UHGV virus genome: UHGV-0118720
Origin: a virus
Length of the DNA: 11,455 bases
Reading direction: 5' to 3' (one strand)
The notes under the pieces are model-generated. The model was not told the DNA's origin. It worked only from the letters and a program-made list of their open reading frames with translations, and made no database searches. The translations under genes and the position numbers were made by a program. This document shows, piece after piece, positions 1 to 9,539 of this stretch; position 1 is the stretch's first letter, and each line of letters starts with the position of its first letter.

Positions 1-200
1 ACAACCCAAGCCAGTAAGTGGGGAAATAACACTGGCAGCCACTGAAAGATGAACCTCCTGTCTTATGGCAAAAAAGATTCTTTGTGGTGGCGGACTGATG
101 GAAAGACATCGGTTATTGCAGAGACCATTCAATGAGTGGTCTCGACAATGGCTTATACCCTACACGGGATAACTTAACTGATATCCCTTTTAACGGATAA

Positions 201-455
201 ATGGAGCCAACAATGGCAGAGATTATTCCCATGACTGAAGAACAGAAATTCCAGTTAGAGATTTACAAGCTGGTCATGAACCAGAACGCAGCCGCAGAAG
301 AAGCATTTCAATTCATTGGCACTGACGAGTTGAAGCTTGAGCTATTCAAAATTCACTTCCAGTCAGGCGGCGCTAATTCAGATATCACGACCCGCACTAT
401 CGAAGCGGTGCGTAAATCGAAGGAAGCGTTAGACCTGTTCACTACCGGAGCATAA
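201..455 (+). CDS. Hypothetical small protein (84 aa) immediately upstream of the small terminase gene
   Basis: Intact ORF whose stop lies 2 nt before the small terminase start. ATG at 201 abuts the TAA of a preceding micro-ORF; an alternative ATG at 213 has a better RBS (GGAG at 204-207, 5-nt spacer). No motif recognised. Confidence 0.5.
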   Translation: MEPTMAEIIPMTEEQKFQLEIYKLVMNQNAAAEEAFQFIGTDELKLELFKIHFQSGGANSDITTRTIEAVRKSKEALDLFTTGA

Positions 456-457
456 AC

Positions 458-898
458 ATGGCGCGCCCAACAAAGTATCAAGAGGCGTACGCCGAACAGG
501 CACGCAAACTGTGCTTGCTGGGCTATACAGACGCAGAGCTTGCTGATTTCTTCGAAGTCAGTGAGTCAACTATTAACAAGTGGAAGCTTGATTATCCTAA
601 GTTTTCGGAGTCCATAAAAAAGGGTAAGGCCGTCGCTGATGCAGAAGTTAGTGATCGTCTTTATCAACGCGCTATGGGCTTCGTGGCTCCAGACATCGAT
701 ATTCGTGTTATTGAAAACAGAATTGTCGAAACTCCGCTTGAGAAGTATTACCCGCCTGATACAACCGCCGCCATCTTCTGGCTTAAGAACCGACAGAAGG
801 ATAAATGGCGCGACAAGGTTGATCACGAATTAACAGGCAAAGACGGCGGCGCAATCCAGATTGAAACATCACCGATGAGCACTCTATTCGGAAAATGA
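458..898 (+). CDS. Terminase small subunit (functional equivalent of P22 gp3; not P22 gp3-like in sequence)
   Basis: 146-aa ORF with RBS GGAG at 447-450. Its TGA (896-898) overlaps the large terminase ATG (895-897) as ATGA. Size, position and an HTH-like N-terminal segment (TDAELADFFEVSESTINKWK) fit a small terminase. Confidence 0.75.
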   Translation: MARPTKYQEAYAEQARKLCLLGYTDAELADFFEVSESTINKWKLDYPKFSESIKKGKAVADAEVSDRLYQRAMGFVAPDIDIRVIENRIVETPLEKYYPPDTTAAIFWLKNRQKDKWRDKVDHELTGKDGGAIQIETSPMSTLFGK

Positions 899-2310
899 CC
901 TCGATTAATCCTATCTTTGAACCGTTCATTGAGGCGCATCGCTACAAAGTCGCCAAAGGCGGTCGAGGTAGCGGTAAATCATGGGCAATTGCGAGGCTGC
1001 TTGTTGAGGCGGCGCGTCGGCAGCCTGTGCGTATTCTCTGCGCTCGTGAACTGCAAAACAGTATCAGCGATTCGGTAATCCGGTTGCTTGAAGACACCAT
1101 AGAGCGGGAAGGGTATTCGGCTGAGTTTGAAATTCAGCGTTCAATGATTCGTCATCTCGGAACGAATGCTGAATTCATGTTCTACGGCATAAAAAACAAC
1201 CCGACGAAGATTAAATCGCTCGAAGGCATTGATATCTGCTGGGTGGAAGAAGCGGAAGCGGTAACAAAGGAATCGTGGGATATCCTGATCCCAACCATCC
1301 GTAAGCCGTTCTCTGAAATATGGGTGAGCTTTAACCCGAAGAACATCCTCGACGATACCTATCAGCGATTCGTAGTAAACCCTCCCGATGATATTTGTCT
1401 GCTGACGGTGAACTACACCGACAACCCGCACTTTCCTGAAGTTCTCCGGCTGGAGATGGAAGAGTGTAAACGCAGAAATCCGACACTGTATCGTCACATC
1501 TGGCTTGGTGAGCCGGTAAGCGCAAGTGATATGGCAATCATCAAACGTGAATGGCTTGAAGCCGCAACCGATGCGCACAAGAAACTCGGATGGAAAGCGA
1601 AAGGCGCTGTTGTCTCTGCGCATGACCCATCAGATACAGGGCCAGATGCTAAAGGTTATGCATCGCGTCACGGTTCGGTGGTTAAGCGCATTGCCGAAGG
1701 TCTACTGATGGACATCAACGAGGGTGCTGACTGGGCTACTTCTCTGGCGATTGAAGACGGCGCTGACCACTACCTGTGGGATGGCGATGGCGTTGGTGCC
1801 GGGCTACGCAGACAGACAACGGAAGCATTCTCCGGTAAGAAAATCACCGCCACGATGTTTAAGGGCAGCGAATCGCCGTTCGATGAAGATGCACCGTATC
1901 AGGCCGGAGCATGGGCTGATGAAGTCGTGCAGGGCGACAACGTTCGCACTATTGGCGATGTGTTCCGCAATAAGCGAGCGCAATTCTATTACGCGCTGGC
2001 TGACAGGCTGTATCTGACATATCGGGCGGTTGTCCACGGTGAGTATGCAGACCCCGACGACATGCTGAGTTTCGACAAAGAAGCAATAGGCGAGAAGATG
2101 CTGGAGAAGCTGTTTGCAGAACTTACGCAGATTCAGCGCAAATTCAATAACAACGGGAAGCTGGAGCTTATGACTAAGGTCGAAATGAAGCAGAAGCTCG
2201 GTATTCCATCTCCTAACCTGGCTGATGCGCTGATGATGTGCATGCATTGCCCGGAGTCGGCTGCGCAACCCGACTATTCCAGTTACTCAATTCCTTGTGG
2301 TGTAGGTTGA
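895..2310 (+). CDS. Terminase large subunit (ATPase/nuclease)
   Basis: 471-aa ORF with a Walker A P-loop near the N-terminus (VAKGGRGSGKSWA) and a probable Walker B/acidic segment (DICWVEEAE). Size and position, directly upstream of the portal gene, are typical. Confidence 0.93.
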   Translation: MTSINPIFEPFIEAHRYKVAKGGRGSGKSWAIARLLVEAARRQPVRILCARELQNSISDSVIRLLEDTIEREGYSAEFEIQRSMIRHLGTNAEFMFYGIKNNPTKIKSLEGIDICWVEEAEAVTKESWDILIPTIRKPFSEIWVSFNPKNILDDTYQRFVVNPPDDICLLTVNYTDNPHFPEVLRLEMEECKRRNPTLYRHIWLGEPVSASDMAIIKREWLEAATDAHKKLGWKAKGAVVSAHDPSDTGPDAKGYASRHGSVVKRIAEGLLMDINEGADWATSLAIEDGADHYLWDGDGVGAGLRRQTTEAFSGKKITATMFKGSESPFDEDAPYQAGAWADEVVQGDNVRTIGDVFRNKRAQFYYALADRLYLTYRAVVHGEYADPDDMLSFDKEAIGEKMLEKLFAELTQIQRKFNNNGKLELMTKVEMKQKLGIPSPNLADALMMCMHCPESAAQPDYSSYSIPCGVG

Positions 2311-2311
2311 T

Positions 2312-4510
2312 ATGGCAGAAAAAAAGATGACTGACTGGCATCGCAAGGTGCTGTGCAACTTTGATAATGCCTGGTCAGCAACGCAGGATATGCGTGAGCA
2401 GATTATTGAGGCTCAACGTTTCGTCAGGGTGTCCGGCGCACAGTGGGAAGGTAGCACAAACGCTGGTTACTCGTTTGATGAGGGCAGGTTTGAGCATTAC
2501 CCGCGCTTTGAACTGAATAAGATTGCCCGTGAATGTGATCGCATCATTGGCGAGTATCGACAGAATCGCATCAGCGTTAAATTCAGACCGAAGGACGATA
2601 AGGCATCGGAAGCGTTAGCCGAAAAGATGAACGGCAAATTCCGCGCTGATTATCAGGAAACATCCGGTGGCGAAGCGTGTGATAACGCATTTGATGATGC
2701 TGTAACGGGCGGATTTGGTTGTTTCCGCATGTGTGCCGATTACGAAGATGAAATGGATCCGAGTAACGAGCAGCGACGCATCAGCCTTCTTCCTGTTTAC
2801 GACCCAGCGACATGCGTCTTCTTCGATCAGGACAGCAAACAATATGACCGCTCTGATGCTATGTGGGCTATGGAAATGTTCTCCATGACGCCCAAAGCGT
2901 TCGAGGCTGAATACCCTGATTCCATCGCGGCAAGCCTTTCTCGAGATGACACTGGCACTCAATATGACTGGTCAACGCCAGATGCCATCTATGTTGGACG
3001 CTACTACGAAGTTCGCATAGAGAAGGTGAAGCTCACGGCGTGGCGCAACCCTGTTAGCGGAGAAACGGCAATCTATGATGAAGAGCAAATCAAAGATGTT
3101 GTTGACGAGCTGACCGATGGCGCATTCGAACTGATTGGTGAGCGGACAGTGAAGAAACGCCGAGTTTATTGCGGTCTTCTGTCTGGTGCTGAATGGCTGG
3201 AAGAGCCGAAGCGTATTCCGGGCGAACATATTCCTCTCATCCCGGTATATGGGCGTCGTTCATTTGTTGATAATCAGGAGCGAATCGAAGGCCACGCAGC
3301 AAAAGCGATGGATGCGCAGCGTCTTGAGAACCTGATGGTTTCCATGATTGCAGATAACGCTACTCAGGCTGGCGGTGATGGCATTCCTGTAGTTGATGTT
3401 GACATGATTCCTGGTCCTCTCGCCACTCATTGGGCAGAGCGCAACAAAAAGCGCCCGGCGTTCCTGCCGATGGTCAGTCTGAAAAACAAAAACGGAGATA
3501 TTACTGCGCAGGCTCAGGTCAGCAGTTATACGCCTCCGACACAAATGCCTCCAGCTCTTGCCGGGCTATTGCAGTACACCGGAACGGCTATTCAGCAAAT
3601 TACAGGTGCGTCGCAGCTTGAGAACATGCCGAGCAACGTCGCCACCGATACCGTTGATAGCATCTTTAACCGGATGGATACGCAGTCCTATATCTACATG
3701 GACAACATGGCTAAATCCATGCGTCGCGCTGGCGTTGTGTGGCTTTCTATGGCGCGTGAGGTCTATGGCAGTGATACGCCGATGCGTATCGTTAATGAGG
3801 ACGGCAGCGATGACGTGGCGCTGATGACTGGTGAAGTGGTTGACCGTCAGACAGGGCAGGTTATCGCGCTTAATGACCTTTCGCAGGGCAACTATGAAGT
3901 GACTGTCGATGTCGGTCAGTCGTTCGCTACTCGCCGTGATGCAACGGTTAAGTCGTTACTTTCCATGCTGGCACTTATCCCGCCAGGAACGCCGAAGCAT
4001 GACCTTGTATCGTCGATGATTCTCGACAATATGGACGGCGAAGGGATGGACGACCTGAAAGAATACAACCGCAATCAGTTGCTTCTGTCTGGAGTTATCA
4101 AGCCGAGAACACCAGAAGAACAGCAGATGGTTGAGCAGGCGAAACAACAACAGGCCAGTCAGCCAGATCCGGCTATGGTTGCAGCGCAAGGTCAGCTTCT
4201 TGCAGGTCAGGCTGAATTGCAGAAAGCGCAGAACGAACAGGCAGCCATTCAGGTTAAAGCATTCCAGGCACAGACTGATGCTCAGGTTGCAGCGGCAAAC
4301 GTTGTGAAAATCCTCGCATCTGCCGATAGCCAGCAGAAATCTGATATCCGCGAGGCTCTGAAACTGCTCGGACAGTTCCAGCAACAGCAAGGAGACAATG
4401 CCCGTGCTGATGCAGAGCTTGTCCTGAAAAGTCAGGCACAGGGCCATGCGCAGCGCATGGACATCAGCAGCATCCTGCAAAAATCAACTCAGCAACAAGC
4501 ACAGCAGTAA
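2312..4510 (+). CDS. Portal protein (P22 gp1-like, with C-terminal helical barrel extension)
   Basis: 732-aa ORF starting 1 nt after the terminase stop. Segments such as KKRRVYCGLL...GEHIPLIPVYG and the C-terminal PEEQQ...DPAMVAAQGQLLAGQAELQKAQN...RMDISSILQ match my recollection of P22 gp1 (about 725 aa). The C-terminus is Gln/Ala-rich and helical. Confidence 0.93.
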   Translation: MAEKKMTDWHRKVLCNFDNAWSATQDMREQIIEAQRFVRVSGAQWEGSTNAGYSFDEGRFEHYPRFELNKIARECDRIIGEYRQNRISVKFRPKDDKASEALAEKMNGKFRADYQETSGGEACDNAFDDAVTGGFGCFRMCADYEDEMDPSNEQRRISLLPVYDPATCVFFDQDSKQYDRSDAMWAMEMFSMTPKAFEAEYPDSIAASLSRDDTGTQYDWSTPDAIYVGRYYEVRIEKVKLTAWRNPVSGETAIYDEEQIKDVVDELTDGAFELIGERTVKKRRVYCGLLSGAEWLEEPKRIPGEHIPLIPVYGRRSFVDNQERIEGHAAKAMDAQRLENLMVSMIADNATQAGGDGIPVVDVDMIPGPLATHWAERNKKRPAFLPMVSLKNKNGDITAQAQVSSYTPPTQMPPALAGLLQYTGTAIQQITGASQLENMPSNVATDTVDSIFNRMDTQSYIYMDNMAKSMRRAGVVWLSMAREVYGSDTPMRIVNEDGSDDVALMTGEVVDRQTGQVIALNDLSQGNYEVTVDVGQSFATRRDATVKSLLSMLALIPPGTPKHDLVSSMILDNMDGEGMDDLKEYNRNQLLLSGVIKPRTPEEQQMVEQAKQQQASQPDPAMVAAQGQLLAGQAELQKAQNEQAAIQVKAFQAQTDAQVAAANVVKILASADSQQKSDIREALKLLGQFQQQQGDNARADAELVLKSQAQGHAQRMDISSILQKSTQQQAQQ

Positions 4511-4600
4511 TTAACTCATAACGTGCAATGGCTGTCTTTATGAGGCCTGGCACCCTATTGCCTTCCGATGGGCTGAACATCGAGTAAACAGGGGTAACAA

Positions 4601-5494
4601 ATGGACCAGATGGCAGAAAACACACCAGAAGTTGAAATCGAACCCGACGCGTCAGAGCAGATTCCTGATGATGTCGAACTGGCTGAAGAAGTCGAAAAAG
4701 CAGATGGCAGTGAGTCCTCAGGAAATGATGCAGAGGAAGATACTGACACTGATGACGACGAATCAGAACAGGAATTCTACTTTGGTGACGAAAAGCTGGA
4801 TTCGCCAACCAGCGAAGATGGCGCAGAGCATGGACTGGTAAAACACCTGCGCAAGACGATTAAAGAGAAAGACCGTGAGCTGAAAGAGCTGATGCGTCAG
4901 TCTCAGAAACCCGTCGAGCAGCAGCCGGTAATCACTCAACCACCGCGAATGCCAAAACTGGATGATGAGGACATCGGTTTCGATGAAGAAATCTACCAGC
5001 AACGCATGGCTAAGTGGGCAGAGGATAACGGCAAGTACCAGCAACAGGAGATGGCTCGCAAGCAGAAGGAGCAGGAGCTTCAGGCTGCCTATCAAGATCG
5101 ATTATCCAAATATCAGCAACGTGTTAAGGCTCTCAAAGTTCCTGGCTATCAGGAAGCTGAGCAGGCCGTACTCGAGGAAATTCCCATCGAGACACAAAAC
5201 GCGATCCTGTTTGAGTCAGAGAAGCCGGAAATCGTTGTTCTGGCGCTCGGTCGCAACGCTGAACTGCGCAAGCAACTGGCAGAAGCTACCAACCCCGTAG
5301 CAATTGGTCGTCTGCTGGAACGTATCGAATCGAAGGCCAGAATCATGCCAAAAGCAAAAACCACGGCAGCCACAACCCCGACAGTTAAGGGGAGCAACGG
5401 CGCAGTAATCAACAACCTCGACAAATTGAAAGCCAAGGCGCTGGAAACTGGTGACTGGACGCCGTATTTCGCCGCTAAAAAGGCAAAAAAATAA
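4601..5494 (+). CDS. Scaffolding protein (P22 gp8-like)
   Basis: 297-aa ORF between portal and coat genes, RBS GGGG at 4591-4594. It has a strongly acidic N-terminal third, charged helical middle, and a basic C-terminal coat-binding-like tail (DKLKAKALETGDWTPYFAAKKAKK). Size is close to P22 gp8. Confidence 0.85.
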   Translation: MDQMAENTPEVEIEPDASEQIPDDVELAEEVEKADGSESSGNDAEEDTDTDDDESEQEFYFGDEKLDSPTSEDGAEHGLVKHLRKTIKEKDRELKELMRQSQKPVEQQPVITQPPRMPKLDDEDIGFDEEIYQQRMAKWAEDNGKYQQQEMARKQKEQELQAAYQDRLSKYQQRVKALKVPGYQEAEQAVLEEIPIETQNAILFESEKPEIVVLALGRNAELRKQLAEATNPVAIGRLLERIESKARIMPKAKTTAATTPTVKGSNGAVINNLDKLKAKALETGDWTPYFAAKKAKK

Positions 5495-5512
5495 CCTATC
5501 GGAGCATTAAGC

Positions 5513-6766
5513 ATGGCTAACCAATTAGCAAAAGACCTTGAAATCATGTTCGAAAACTACGTTGAAGGCTTTGAGGCCGCCTGCGTAGTTTCCCGTAACG
5601 CTAAAAAATTCCGTCCCGGTGATACAGCAATGCAGCGAGCAGGTGATGTTCTGTATCGTCCGCAGCATTACCACATGAACATTGAAGAAGGCCTCGATCT
5701 CAGCAGCAAAACGCCAACAGCACTGGTTCAGCGCCTTGTTCCTTCTGTGTTCAAGGAGCCGAAAAACATTCTGTACACTCTGGATGCGCGTGAAATGCGT
5801 GACCCTGAGCATAAAACTGAAGCTGGTCGCGCCGCAGGTATGCGCCTTGCTGCACAGATTGACTCTGACCTGATTTCCATGGTCACGCAGCGTGCTACTA
5901 ACGTGATCACAATGGCTGACTCAACCACTGGTTCACAGGGCCGTGATTTGTGGAACTGTGCGGCAGGTATTGATGCCACCATGACGGCGATTGGTGTACC
6001 ACAGGGTATCAACCGCCGCTCTTTCTGGAACCCCTTCAACTACAAAGACCTTGCTGGCGAGCTTGGTCACCGTGCCTATGCTCAGGGCGCAACCCTGACA
6101 GCATACGAAAAAGCGCAGATCCCTCCGGTTGCTTCCTTTGATAGCTACAAGACCGATATTTCTGGTCGTGTTCCGAAGGGTACAGCAACTTCCCTGACGC
6201 TGGCGGCTGAACCTGCGCACAAGGTTGAAGCGAAAGATGCCAACGATATGCCAGTGGATAACCGACAGGGGACCATTACGGTATCTGCATCTGGTTTGCA
6301 GGTTGGCGATGCGTTCACCATTGCAGGGGTGAATTCCGTACACCAGATCACCAAAGATACCACCGGGCAGCCGCAGGTATTCCGCGTTCTGGCAGTAAGC
6401 GGAACGACAGTAACTATCTCCCCGAAAATTCTGCCGCCTGACAACGCGGATGTCGCCAGCCGACCATATGCAAACGTTGATGCTAACGCGGCAAATGGTG
6501 CAGCAATTACCATTCTCAACAAAAATGCCGCACCGGCTAACCTGTTCTGGGCTGATGGTTCTGTTGAACTGATGTACGGCAAACTGGCGTTCCCGACTGG
6601 TCAGGGTCCACAGGTAATGACAGCAACCACCGAGCAGGGCGCTACGCTGATCATGTCTTACGCCTTCGACCACATCAAAGGTGTAACCACAGCTCGTTTC
6701 ACCACTCTGTACGGTTGCTCGGTACTGGTTCCTGAATATACGGGCATCGTTATTGCCGGGCAGTAA
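5513..6766 (+). CDS. Major coat (capsid) protein (P22 gp5-like)
   Basis: 417-aa ORF with RBS GGAG at 5501-5504, following the scaffold gene and followed by a strong hairpin terminator. Size and position match P22-like coat proteins; a conserved-looking motif FWADGSVEL is present. Confidence 0.9.
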   Translation: MANQLAKDLEIMFENYVEGFEAACVVSRNAKKFRPGDTAMQRAGDVLYRPQHYHMNIEEGLDLSSKTPTALVQRLVPSVFKEPKNILYTLDAREMRDPEHKTEAGRAAGMRLAAQIDSDLISMVTQRATNVITMADSTTGSQGRDLWNCAAGIDATMTAIGVPQGINRRSFWNPFNYKDLAGELGHRAYAQGATLTAYEKAQIPPVASFDSYKTDISGRVPKGTATSLTLAAEPAHKVEAKDANDMPVDNRQGTITVSASGLQVGDAFTIAGVNSVHQITKDTTGQPQVFRVLAVSGTTVTISPKILPPDNADVASRPYANVDANAANGAAITILNKNAAPANLFWADGSVELMYGKLAFPTGQGPQVMTATTEQGATLIMSYAFDHIKGVTTARFTTLYGCSVLVPEYTGIVIAGQ

Positions 6767-6772
6767 TTTTGG

Positions 6773-6796
6773 TGGGGCTTCGGCCCCATTTTTATT
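6773..6796. terminator. Rho-independent terminator candidate downstream of the coat gene
   Basis: Perfect 6-bp GC-rich stem TGGGGC/GCCCCA (6773-6778 and 6783-6788) with a TTCG tetraloop (6779-6782), followed by a T-run (6789-6793). It starts 7 nt after the coat stop codon. Confidence 0.65.
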
Positions 6797-6807
6797 GGGA
6801 GAAGGCA

Positions 6808-6996
6808 ATGGCACGAACAATGCTCTATAAGCCTGGCAACATGATCACCTGTGGTCAGTTTGCTGTCGATTACATCATTGTTGATGACGAAGAAGTTAAA
6901 TCTCACCTGAAAAAAGGTTGGGTAAAAACTCCTGAAGAAACCGCAACGAAGCAAAAAGTGGCTAAGGCGGAAGAAGATGGCGAAAACGAAGGGTGA
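6808..6996 (+). CDS. Hypothetical small protein (62 aa) between the coat and gp4-like genes
   Basis: ATG at 6808 preceded by GGGAGAAGG (6797-6805). The ORF track's TTG start at 6769 lies inside the terminator hairpin and is unlikely. The 3' end overlaps the gp4-like gene start by 20 nt in another frame. C-terminus is Lys/Glu-rich. Confidence 0.45.
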   Translation: MARTMLYKPGNMITCGQFAVDYIIVDDEEVKSHLKKGWVKTPEETATKQKVAKAEEDGENEG

Positions 6997-7438
6997 TCTC
7001 GTTCTAAAGGCTTTACGAAAAGCCGGGCTGTATTCCAATGCCACGTTGACAGATGCTGACCCTCAGGCAATTGAAGATGCCATTAATGACCTCGAAGACA
7101 TGATGGCAGCATGGCAGGCGAAAGGTATCGAGCTTGGGTATCAGTTTGCTGATACAGAAAACGGCATCATGCCGTTACCTGACGATGATTCAGGTATCCC
7201 TGCATGGGCAAATGATGGCGTCGCTTTGAAACTCGCTGTGCAAGTGTGCATGGATAACGTCATTCAGCCGTCGGATGCTCTCCTTACCGCTGCTGACTGT
7301 GCATATCAGACAATCTGTATCGCTTTAACCAAAATACCACCACTTGAGCGGCGAAATGACATGCCTCGCGGTAGTGGTAACAAAAGCGCGTTTACGTGGA
7401 ATCGGTTTTACATCGAGAAAGATGATCCGAGTACGTGA
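6977..7438 (+). CDS. Head-to-tail adaptor / portal-closure protein (P22 gp4-like)
   Basis: 153-aa ORF. The N-terminus KTKGDLVLKALRKAGLYSNATLTDADPQAIEDAINDLEDMMAAW and C-terminal PRGSGN motif match my recollection of P22 gp4. It is syntenic between the coat and gp10-like genes. Confidence 0.88.
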   Translation: MAKTKGDLVLKALRKAGLYSNATLTDADPQAIEDAINDLEDMMAAWQAKGIELGYQFADTENGIMPLPDDDSGIPAWANDGVALKLAVQVCMDNVIQPSDALLTAADCAYQTICIALTKIPPLERRNDMPRGSGNKSAFTWNRFYIEKDDPST

Positions 7439-7447
7439 GGTGAATAA

Positions 7448-7552
7448 ATGCCGATTCAGCAACTTCCGCTTATGAAAGGTGTCGGCAAAGATTTCCGAAA
7501 CGCTGACTATATCGACTATCTGCCAGTGAATATGCTGGCAATTTTGATATAA
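7448..7552 (+). pseudogene. Truncated 5' remnant (34 codons) of the gp10-like tail-hub gene, displaced by the insertion
   Basis: RBS GAGG at 7437-7440, then [31 protein letters not shown] followed by ILI and a stop. The first 31 codons align codon-for-codon with the start of the full-length gene at 8121; similarity ends exactly at 7540/7541. Confidence 0.8.
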
Positions 7553-7553
7553 T
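7545..7553 (+). promoter_or_regulatory. Candidate extended -10 promoter element (TGaTATAAT) for the endonuclease gene
   Basis: TG at 7545-7546 and a perfect TATAAT at 7548-7553, about 36 nt upstream of the endonuclease ATG. No good -35 is seen, which extended -10 promoters often lack. Motif match only. Confidence 0.35.
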
Positions 7554-7588
7554 AAGTACATGAAAAATCGAAACTTTAAGGAGTAGAT

Positions 7589-8173
7589 ATGCTTTCTGAG
7601 AATGCTAAAGATATACCTGGATTTGAAGGTGTTTATGCCGTAACAGAAGATGGCAGGGTATATTCTCACTCACGTGTTGTTAAGGCTGCGCATGGCAGCA
7701 CGCAACTCAGAAAGGGGCGCTGGTTAAAGCCTAAAATCAATCAGGGAAGGGTGCTTTATAATATCGGAGCAAAATGGACTTTTGCCCATCGAATCGTTGC
7801 AATGACATTCCTGCCAAATCCTGAAAACAAGCCTCAGGTAAATCATATTGATGGCAATCCACTCAATAATAACGTCAATAATCTTGAGTGGTGCACTCAA
7901 AGCGAAAACATCAAACATGCATACGCCACCGGATTAAAGAAGCCAATCAAGTTTTTCGGAACCAAGCACCCAAAACACAAGTTGAGTGATGACGATGTTC
8001 TTGCAATCAAGTCATCAAAAGAAAGCTTGTCAGTAATTGCGGCTAAGTACGGGATATCTAAGACCTGGGCAAGTAGGCTAAAGCGTGATGCTAACTGGGT
8101 TCATATAAAGGTTGATTCCAATGGCAATACAACAACTACCACTAATGAAGGGATTGGGGAAAAGTGCGGTTAA
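7589..8173 (+). CDS. HNH homing endonuclease (NUMOD4-like N-terminal motif, HNH_3-type catalytic core, C-terminal HTH-like DNA-binding module)
   Basis: Own RBS AAGGAG at 7578-7583, 5-nt spacer. Motifs: IPGFEGVYAVTEDGRVYS (NUMOD4-like), HRIVAMTF...VNHIDGNPLNNNVNNLEWCTQSENIKH (HNH core), LSDDDVLAIKSSKESLSVIAAKYGISKTWASRLKR (HTH-like). The last 18 codons overlap the gp10-like gene start out of frame. Confidence 0.85.
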   Translation: MLSENAKDIPGFEGVYAVTEDGRVYSHSRVVKAAHGSTQLRKGRWLKPKINQGRVLYNIGAKWTFAHRIVAMTFLPNPENKPQVNHIDGNPLNNNVNNLEWCTQSENIKHAYATGLKKPIKFFGTKHPKHKLSDDDVLAIKSSKESLSVIAAKYGISKTWASRLKRDANWVHIKVDSNGNTTTTTNEGIGEKCG

Positions 8174-9539
8174 TGCTGATTATATAGACCAACTTCCAGT
8201 CAATCTTTTAGCTACGCCCAAGGAGGTGTTGAATTCATCGGGATATCTTCGCTCATTCCCGGGCATTGCAAAACGTTCTGATGTGAACGGTGTATCTCGC
8301 GGCGTCGAGTACAACATGGCGCAGAATGCTGTTTATCGTGTGTGTGGTGGCAAGCTGTACAAAGGAGAAAGTGAAGTCGGTGACGTTGCCGGAAGTGGTC
8401 GCGTATCAATGGCGCATGGTCGTATATCACAGGCGGTAGGGGTTAACGGGAAACTGGTCGAGTATCGCTATGATGGCACGATTAAAACCGTCTCAAACTG
8501 GCCTACAGACAGCGGATTCACGCAGTATGAGTTAGGATCAGTCCGCGACATTACGCGCTTACGTGGGCGTTATGCGTGGTCAAAAGACGGCACTGATTCA
8601 TGGTTTATCACTGACCTTGAAGACGAATCGCATCCTGACCGTTACAGCGCACAATATCGCGCAGAATCGCAGCCTGACGGCATCATCGGCATAGGAACAT
8701 GGCGAGACTTCATCGTCTGCTTTGGTTCATCGACGATTGAATATTTCTCCCTGACTGGCGCAACCACAGTTGGTGCTGCTTTGTATGTCGCACAGCCATC
8801 ACTGATGGTGCAGAAAGGCATTGCCGGGACTTACTGCAAAACGCCATTCGCTGATTCGTATGCGTTCATCAGCAATCCGGCAACAGGTGCGCCGTCTGTA
8901 TACATCATCGGCTCCGGTCAGGTGTCACCAATCGCCAGCGCGAGCATTGAGAAAATCCTCCGCTCCTACACTGCTGATGAACTGGCTGATGGTGTGATGG
9001 AATCGCTGCGATTTGATGCTCATGAGTTGCTGATTATCCACCTTCCGCGCCATGTTCTCGTGTACGACGCATCTTCAAGCGCCAATGGTCCGCAATGGTG
9101 TGTGCTGAAAACAGGTCTGTATGACGATGTGTACCGCGCTATCGACTTCATTTACGAAGGCAATCAGATAACGTGCGGCGATAAACTGGAGTCCGTGACC
9201 GGGAAATTGCAATTCGACATCAGCAGCCAGTACGACAAGCAACAGGAACACCTGCTGTTTACTCCACTGTTCAAAGCGGATAACGCCAGATGCTTCGATC
9301 TGGAGGTGGAATCATCCACTGGCGTAGCTCAGTACGCCGACCGCCTGTTCCTCTCTGCAACCACTGACGGCATAAATTACGGGCGTGAGCAGATGATTGA
9401 ACAGAATGAACCGTTCGTTTACGACAAGCGTGTTTTGTGGAAGCGTGTCGGGCGCATCAGGAAAAACATTGGCTTCAAATTGCGCGTTATCACGAAGTCA
9501 CCTGTCACTCTGTCTGGCTGCCAGATAAGGATTGAGTAA
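8121..9539 (+). CDS. Tail hub / needle-socket protein (P22 gp10-like), full length with a chimeric N-terminus
   Basis: 472 codons from ATG 8121; the ORF track's 8112 start is TTG and less likely. From about codon 32 ([19 protein letters not shown]...) to the end it matches my recollection of P22 gp10. The first 31 codons are a recoded variant of the upstream remnant. Confidence 0.9.

Follow-up and report, generated by a model that had tools for sequence, protein, structure and literature searches.

The window analyzed here is a stretch of 11,455 nucleotides (nt) from the virus genome UHGV-0118720, which contains the block of late structural genes from a P22-like (Lederbergvirus-type) phage or prophage. 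Within it, positions 7541–8240 very probably represent a discrete mobile unit, in which a short leader is followed by the gene for an I-HmuI-like HNH endonuclease of the free-standing type and then by codons 1–40 of the tail-hub gene gp10 in a divergent version. The unit would have been inserted in gp10 after native codon 31, leaving the resident codons 1–31 upstream as a dead 34-codon stub, and the gene would have been rebuilt by the carried codons 1–40 joined in frame with the resident codons 41–472. The segment differs from its surroundings in composition and codon usage, has boundaries fixed by comparison with other genomes, links the endonuclease gene to the carried gp10 end, and varies little among its copies, which share an identical junction in diverse backgrounds. 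One copy lies in a P22 background, and a hybrid gp10 allele free of the endonuclease gene was also found.

Boundaries of the Cassette and the Carried 5′ End of gp10

A search with positions 7541–8213 matched only Salmonella phage UPF_BP1 (98.8%) and, partially, phage HZ41. Positions 8214–9539, searched separately, matched 127 P22-like phages, those free of the endonuclease gene aligning from position 8241 only. In a three-way alignment, the window followed UPF_BP1 from inside the stub through the cassette, and phage Sf6 rejoined at GGATATCTTCGC (8241). Compared with 70 native gp10 5′ ends, positions 8121–8240 showed 45–48 differences per 120 nt (60–62% identity), whereas the native ends differed among themselves by 0–10 per 120 nt; positions 8241–8360 of the window likewise differed from the natives by 0–10. 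Comparison of genomes placed the left edge at 7540/7541, with an ambiguity of 1–2 nt, and the right edge at 8240/8241. The carried codons 1–40 cover the insertion point (codon 31/32) and nine codons past it; the foreign tract thus goes 27 nt beyond the insertion point. Over these 27 nt, the carried and native copies differ at 13 positions, and the stub keeps half of the presumed target site.

The carried end changes 8 of the 40 residues of a nearly invariant native N-terminus: P2A, V12L, D15S, F16A, R17V, Y24Q, M29L, and I36V. A further 22 codons were altered synonymously. A purely synonymous recoding of the 5′ end was rejected on account of the eight residue changes.

The initial annotation had drawn an island at 7541–8213 and had taken gp10 for a chimera with 31 foreign residues. 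Its reading of the island as a cassette with an endonuclease gene is supported (the cassette is foreign and the endonuclease of the HNH type), the two halves do have different relatives, and its left boundary is upheld within 1–2 nt. The right boundary at 8213 was wrong. The chimera itself stands, with a foreign part of 40 codons (8121–8240): a 31-codon boundary was rejected because endonuclease-free phages align from 8241. The remark that the foreign residues must still support assembly onto gp4 is reasonable. In Sf6, two adaptor subunits take up between them a lamin-B1-like domain built from the N- and C-terminal extensions of the tail hub (PMC9728967), and the changes in residues 1–40 could matter for assembly. 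Two observations suggest that the chimera is tolerated: it is carried by UPF_BP1, deposited as a phage genome, and the cassette stands beside four gp4 3′-end types.

Origin of the Carried End

Scans with back-translated peptides revealed that uninterrupted gp10 genes of divergent P22-like phages share the unusual N-terminal residues. At two loci (L205 and L209), the N-terminus starts with MP(I/V) and shares L12, S15, Q24, L29, and V36 with the carried end. The closest natural allele, L210 (IMGVR_UViG_2909177499_000003; endonuclease-free, gp10 on the reverse strand from position 4049), was identical to the carried end at 37 of 40 residues and 95 of 120 nt. The next ~500 nt of this gp10 were Sf6-type (83–95% identity to the window), and identity fell again from nt ~600; L210 is itself mosaic and possibly related to the donor lineage. 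From these alignments, the carried end appears to be a natural allele acquired from another gp10 lineage, as opposed to a sequence recoded arbitrarily.

No exact donor was recovered. The 54-residue new N-terminus, compared with a collection of 5.8 billion protein sequences, retrieved 19 short native-type fragments and no donor, and the back-translated peptide scan of GTDB species representatives gave no match. A tblastn search of 50,697 phage records with the 40-residue N-terminus yielded no match between UPF_BP1 (100%) and ~84% identity. The endonuclease protein, scanned against GTDB species representatives, had relatives of at most 49% full-length identity, mostly in low-GC Firmicutes and other metagenome-assembled genomes, and no Enterobacterales donor. 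The gene order gp4–endonuclease–gp10, which would be ancestral, was not found among the closest endonuclease relatives (HZ41 and L144–L155). An ancestor with the endonuclease immediately upstream of its own phage's gp10 would nevertheless fit, because the endonuclease homology ends at ~8117 and the tail of the open reading frame (ORF) runs into gp10.

The divergence could instead have arisen in place, if the gp10 5′ end had been duplicated in tandem around the endonuclease gene and the downstream copy recoded by selection against self-cleavage and deletion between the repeats, with no foreign donor. The failure of the sequence scans to find an exact donor agrees with such a course, as do the distance of the nearest natural allele (25 of 120 nt) and the synonymous changes, which affect 22 of the 32 residue-conserving codons and are dense across the presumed site; GC-to-AT changes (17) also outnumber AT-to-GC changes (11). 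We nevertheless consider a duplication in place unlikely: five to seven of the eight residue differences are states occurring in natural divergent lineages (L205, L209, and L210), and both serine codons have switched family (AGC to TCA and AGC to TCG), which would require several nucleotide steps each. Moreover, the divergence ends at one sharp point, and the endonuclease gene and flanks are nearly unchanged among copies.

Distribution and Diversity of the Cassette

The cassette was found in 18 of 905 complete Escherichia coli genomes bearing a P22-like gp10 and was absent from ~98% of them. Salmonella phage UPF_BP1, 26 IMG/VR contigs, and 8 metagenome contigs were further carriers. In the cassette-type occurrences checked (the IMG/VR contigs by name, the eight metagenome matches verified), the carried 5′ end always accompanied the endonuclease gene. 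Presence was thus sporadic but at one identical site, with the junction GGCA/ATTTTGATATAA common to all carriers, and the history of the cassette was decoupled from that of its flanks: 22 carrier loci had 15 distinct stubs with ordinary native polymorphisms, and at least four different gp4 3′-end sequences upstream and several gp26 types downstream were observed.

Nucleotide diversity (π) was calculated from 31 distinct carrier sequences (E. coli prophages, UPF_BP1, and IMG/VR contigs; Table 1). The nearest polymorphic sites flanking the cassette were 7535 and 8258, and diversity stepped tenfold within 20 nt at both edges. Cassettes of E. coli and Salmonella phages were 99% identical, while the gp10 bodies there differed by 6%. 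Intermediate-frequency polymorphisms at 7660, 7738, 7930, and 8156 define two cassette haplotypes, in a ratio of ~17:14 among the distinct copies.

The endonuclease ORF was intact in 30 of the 31 distinct copies, among which 12 synonymous and 7 non-synonymous variants were present. The exception was E. coli ES5 (L011, 2549–3132), where a 1-nt deletion at window position 7824 shifts the frame and the gene is annotated as two ORFs; this copy is decaying. In E. coli STEC308 (L004, 2115–5165), the cassette lay in a heavily decayed prophage remnant with a truncated gp4 and partial needle and downstream genes, adjoining chromosomal sugar-metabolism genes.

These data bear on whether the cassette moves. 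A single ancient insertion, immobile since, with an endonuclease that is inactive or serves another role, might have been spread by the general mosaic recombination of P22-like phages. Shuffling of the flanking modules gp4 and gp26 (π above 0.3), the mosaic gp10 of UPF_BP1 beyond the cassette, copies in decayed prophages, and the one frameshifted endonuclease all speak for this. We regard it as highly unlikely, since random recombination predicts a gradual decay with distance instead of the abrupt steps seen at both edges, which are predicted by repeated insertion through break repair and not by diffuse recombination around one old insertion. The retention of an intact ORF in almost all copies, the excess of synonymous over non-synonymous variants, and the near identity of the cassette between E. 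coli and Salmonella phages also argue against an immobile element.

Two Informative Genomes

In UPF_BP1 (L001, about 2600–5000), the stub (93 nt) and 300 nt ahead of it were 100% identical to P22. To the right of the cassette, ~180 nt were E. coli/Sf6-type (91–96% identity to Sf6 and 83–90% to P22), followed by 300 nt again 100% identical to P22; gp10 became mosaic once more from nt ~600. This arrangement resembles insertion of the cassette into a P22 genome, accompanied by co-conversion of a short stretch on the right, and it is the one example of co-conversion found. In GenBank, gp10 of UPF_BP1 is placed at 3689–4999; the ATG equivalent to 8121 is near 3581, and the annotated gene is ~108 nt short.

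E. coli AVS0578 (L212, NZ_CP124374.1, 2501–2620) had a hybrid gp10 without the endonuclease gene: nt 1–57 were of the native type and nt 58–120 were 100% identical to the carried copy. It was the sole allele of this kind among the 905 gp10-bearing E. coli genomes. The allele is consistent with the product expected from recombination between the stub and the carried copy, deleting the endonuclease gene, or from break repair with the carried copy alone; whichever the route, it differs from the natives across the presumed target.

Composition and Codon Usage

G+C content of 7541–8213 was 40.6% (n = 673), against 50.0% in the whole window, 50.5% in 1–7447, and 51.0% from 8214 to the end. The 673-nt stretch with the lowest G+C content in the entire window began at 7538; such stretches outside the region had a minimum of 45.2%, a mean of 50.8%, and a standard deviation of 1.7%. 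Samples of 60 nt gave 35–53% (median 42%) in the endonuclease gene and 45–57% (median 52%) in gp10 (8241–9539). The difference was significant both between the unit and the rest (Mann–Whitney test, p = 1.2e-5) and between 7541–8240 and the rest (chi-square test, p = 1e-6).

Codon usage was shifted as well. G+C content at third codon positions (GC3) of the endonuclease gene was 0.407 compared with a null of 0.536 ± 0.033, a value as low being reached by none of 1482 equal-length blocks of the structural genes, and its synonymous codon choice was about six standard deviations off the structural block. Codons 1–40 of gp10 had a codon-preference score of −0.378 (0.098 ± 0.067 in comparison; none of 2894 40-codon blocks as low). 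The stub (7448–7540) had ordinary codon usage, with a GC3 of 0.516.

The AT-richer island of the initial annotation is thereby confirmed, its hand counts of 60-nt samples proved accurate, and a significant shift is present in both the G+C and codon-usage profiles, with boundaries that fit the insertion (the left exactly, the right at 8240). Its statement that the 5′ end of gp10 shares the character of the cassette holds for the atypical codon usage, raw G+C content being weak evidence alone. Native gp10 5′ ends (n = 70) had 44–49% G+C over 120 nt, below the gene average of 51%; the new end was lower than all 70 of them, but because the natives are likewise low, G+C content was rejected as a sufficient proof of foreignness. 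What appears decisive for it is the codon usage, together with the divergence of the sequence and its linkage to the endonuclease gene. The maximum-likelihood low-GC segment was 7406–8210; composition places the left edge loosely because a mild AT-richness is native to the end of gp4 and the start of gp10.

A mere local quirk of native composition, with gene starts and spacers AT-rich anyway and an endonuclease rich in lysine and asparagine, would suit the low G+C content of the native 5′ ends, that at second codon positions of the stub (0.258), and the start of the low-GC segment at ~7406, ahead of the cassette, but can hardly be reconciled with the simultaneous shift in GC3 and synonymous codon choice, with 70 of 70 native 5′ ends richer in G+C, or with a tract that is missing from ~98% of related prophages and only 60–62% identical to native alleles.

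The Endonuclease Gene

The encoded protein matched Pfam families NUMOD4 (residues 7–53, E = 1.3e-8) and HNH_3 (residues 65–107, E = 1.9e-10). The structure of I-HmuI from Bacillus phage SPO1 (PDB 1U3E) aligned to residues 7–116 (E = 1e-8), and the alignment kept the catalytic H/N positions, H(I)DGN...NN...N; the protein thus resembles I-HmuI in having a NUMOD4-like and an HNH module, while its C-terminal third has no sequence match to I-HmuI. As to a C-terminal helix-turn-helix DNA-binding domain, no Pfam match was found beyond residue 107, and phage relatives aligned up to residue 173–176. Homology to relatives stopped at residue ~176, that is, nt ~8117, 4 bases ahead of the gp10 ATG. The last ~18 codons (8117–8173), without counterpart in relatives, are the gp10 start read in another frame, and over its first 53 nt, the carried gp10 end is dual-coding only incidentally.

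I-HmuI is encoded within a self-splicing group I intron, but around the cassette endonuclease no ribozyme was detectable: an Rfam scan of 6900–8700 gave neither an intron nor a ribozyme at E ≤ 1, only a chance MicA-like match (E = 0.96). The ORF has its own Shine–Dalgarno sequence, a frame other than that of gp10, and stops upstream; the endonuclease is apparently not borne by a group I intron or an intein. We therefore describe it as a predicted free-standing I-HmuI-like HNH homing endonuclease with putative cleavage activity and target site.

The closest relatives (HZ41 and L144–L155) had 55–61% identity, and all were intergenic between gp10 and gp26. The HZ41-type gene (55% amino acid identity) occupied this position in phage HZ41 (L003, 3024–3569), at a further locus (L005, 4521–5054), and in L144–L155. 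It shares with the cassette the 24-nt leader and the first ~47 codons at 87–90% nt identity (7565–7728) and is divergent after, which suggests module shuffling within the endonuclease family. Both endonuclease genes were present in E. coli K56-43-un. Related endonuclease genes of P22-like phages had 35–43% G+C, against 48–49% in their flanks.

Gene Layout

The genes of the window are arranged in the order terminase, portal, scaffold, coat, gp4, gp10, gp26 needle (with a Sf6-type knob), gp14, and gp7. Three features were found between gp4 and the gp10 body: a 34-codon ORF, a 194-codon ORF, and a full-length gp10 ORF with a new start (Table 1). The stub, labeled a partial pseudogene by the Prokaryotic Genome Annotation Pipeline (PGAP), differs from native gp10 5′ ends by 1–8 nt per 93, and its frame continues into the cassette as ILI before a double stop (7550–7555). 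The intergenic part of the leader (7553–7588) had 27.8% G+C, and a Shine–Dalgarno sequence AAGGAG (7578–7583) was located 5 nt ahead of the endonuclease ATG. The new gp10 ATG (8121) falls within the 3′ end of the endonuclease ORF and is preceded by a weak AAAGG (8107–8111) at a spacing of 7 to 9 nt. The whole gp10 ORF matched Pfam Phage_stabilise (7.5e-299) over model positions 1–469 of 469 and the tail-hub structures 7SG7 and 8TVR over full length; from 8241 onward, it was 94–95% identical to Sf6 and many E. coli phages.

The palindrome TGCCAGTGAATATGCTGGCA terminates precisely at the insertion point. Together with the adjacent ATTTTGATAT of the cassette (7541–7550), it had a terminator-like hairpin score; the carried copy reads CTTCCAGTCAATCTTTTAGCT at this position, and the palindrome is lost. 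The palindrome may belong to the recognition site, may have been a hotspot at which the first illegitimate joining took place, or may act as a weak terminator. A scan of 7300–8400 gave no sigma-70-like promoter. The internal repeat search detected only short chance repeats, missing the two gp10 5′ copies because the divergence between them is too large.

Table 1. Features of the gp4–gp10 region of UHGV-0118720 and nucleotide diversity (π) among carriers of the cassette.
Feature	Position	Strand	Evidence and G+C content	π
gp4 head-to-tail adaptor gene, native upstream neighbor	6977..7438	+	Pfam P22_Tail-4, E = 8.7e-41; 48.7% G+C	
gp4 3′ end	7048..7438			0.32
Stub, resident gp10 codons 1–31 (34-codon ORF 7448–7552)	7448..7540	+	Pfam Phage_stabilise, E = 7e-11	0.039
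Palindrome (TGCCAG...CTGGCA)	7521..7540	+	native gp10 codons 25–31; consensus scan	
Cassette	7541..8240			0.004–0.006 (leader 0.004; carried 5′ end 0.006)
Cassette leader: left junction, stops for the stub frame, Shine–Dalgarno sequence	7541..7588	+	read from sequence	
Predicted HNH homing endonuclease gene, I-HmuI-like, 194 amino acids	7589..8173	+	NUMOD4 and HNH_3	
Replacement gp10 codons 1–40, cassette-carried	8121..8240	+	41.7% G+C, GC3 0.375	
Resident gp10 part, codons 41–472, Sf6/E. coli-type tail hub	8241..9539	+	51.3% G+C	
gp10, start of the resident part	8241..8360			0.059
gp10 3′ end	9101..9539			0.13

Proposed Mechanism

The following course is what we infer about whether the enzyme is active, where its target lies, which way the unit was transferred, and how it was first (illegitimately) inserted. 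The enzyme would nick or cut unoccupied gp10 alleles near codons 25–40, and the break would be repaired from a cassette-bearing genome, in co-infection or from a resident prophage, the stub providing homology on the left and gp10 from codon 41 onward on the right. The occupied genome would be immune because the stub has half of the site and the carried copy is ~40% different across it. Divergence between the two direct copies would also suppress the recombination that deletes the endonuclease gene. Expression would most probably proceed from the late operon, the stub initiation region, the double stop, and AAGGAG leading to the endonuclease ATG and AAAGG serving the gp10 start. Low G+C content and odd codon usage would be due to foreign ancestry, the carried 5′ end having come from a different gp10 lineage and having moved together with the endonuclease gene and not with its host gene.

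Several points weigh against a mobile unit with a captured gp10 end. Enzyme activity and the target site are predictions from sequence. The sequence scans found no donor genome in which the endonuclease gene immediately precedes a complete gp10 carrying the same allele, the nearest natural allele is still 25 of 120 nt away, and some of the divergence may have arisen after capture. The GC3 of codons 1–40 (0.375) is only marginally unusual, 4.6% of blocks being equally low. P22-like phages are highly mosaic, and ordinary recombination near one old insertion could account for part of the diversity of the flanks, though it does not predict the abrupt steps. Finally, instead of a product of loss, the allele of AVS0578 might in principle represent a precursor or a mosaic formed independently.

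Comparison with Known Systems

Free-standing homing endonucleases of phages and the concept of intronless homing have been summarized (PMC12724721). Like SegF, SegG, and MobE of phage T4 and the I-HmuI-like HNH genes of lactococcal Skunavirus phages, the cassette endonuclease is a stand-alone gene, not associated with an intron or intein. Further features in common with these genes are presence or absence at a fixed site, AT-richness relative to the host phage, and co-conversion of a flank (~180 nt in UPF_BP1). Unlike the T4 Seg/Mob-type and Skunavirus genes, which are intergenic, the cassette lies inside an essential structural gene and brings a replacement gene end; the HZ41-type endonuclease of P22-like phages is of the ordinary intergenic kind. 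Thus, the nuclease and the AT-richness are ordinary for free-standing HNH homing endonucleases, and what is unusual is an intragenic insertion rescued by a carried gene end.

In fungal mitochondria, free-standing GIY-YIG and LAGLIDADG genes occur with partial duplications of atp9 (N-terminus), atp6, and cox1, leaving a pseudogene (PMC7487136). As in these cases, the endonuclease gene and a foreign gene terminus would move together in P22-like phages, the resident terminus being displaced and decaying and the host gene remaining a functional chimera. The fungal examples are organellar and involve other nuclease families, whereas here the host is a phage late-operon gene, the enzyme is of the HNH type, and the carried piece is a 5′ end whose start codon overlaps the endonuclease ORF. 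The piece carried in fungal mitochondria is usually a 3′ end; atp6 of Allomyces macrogynus is reportedly a similar case. In Aeromonas phage Aeh1, insertion of mobE is said to split nrdA into two polypeptides that reassemble. If so, both systems have a free-standing endonuclease gene within a coding sequence with the host function kept, but gp10 is not split, as the duplicate 5′ end restores a single full-length ORF. Neither the cassette nor, for phages, such an architecture was found described in the literature on UPF_BP1, on homing endonucleases of P22-like phages, or on partial duplication with phage homing endonucleases.

Significance

The cassette is relevant to annotation, as shown by the short gp10 of UPF_BP1 and by the stub, which PGAP leaves as an unexplained partial pseudogene. 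It also offers, in the tractable P22/Salmonella system, a case for studying intronless homing into a coding sequence and for mapping a new I-HmuI-like target site. The allele swap is forced in that part of the tail hub which in Sf6 contributes to the adaptor-docking domain (PMC9728967) and appears to be tolerated beside at least four gp4 3′-end sequences. The P22/Salmonella system would also suit the question of how mosaicism and residue changes in structural proteins are driven by selfish elements. We suggest, tentatively and as a possibility somewhat short of probable, that a divergent, cleavage-resistant copy of a gene end is a third general way, besides introns and inteins, to inhabit an essential phage coding sequence. 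The unit described here would then be actively homing, and public genomes would show its entire life cycle: how it invades P22 and E. coli-type backgrounds, decays, and is lost to leave a resistant hybrid allele. Such units could also drive, unnoticed, the replacement of N-terminal alleles in structural genes of phages.

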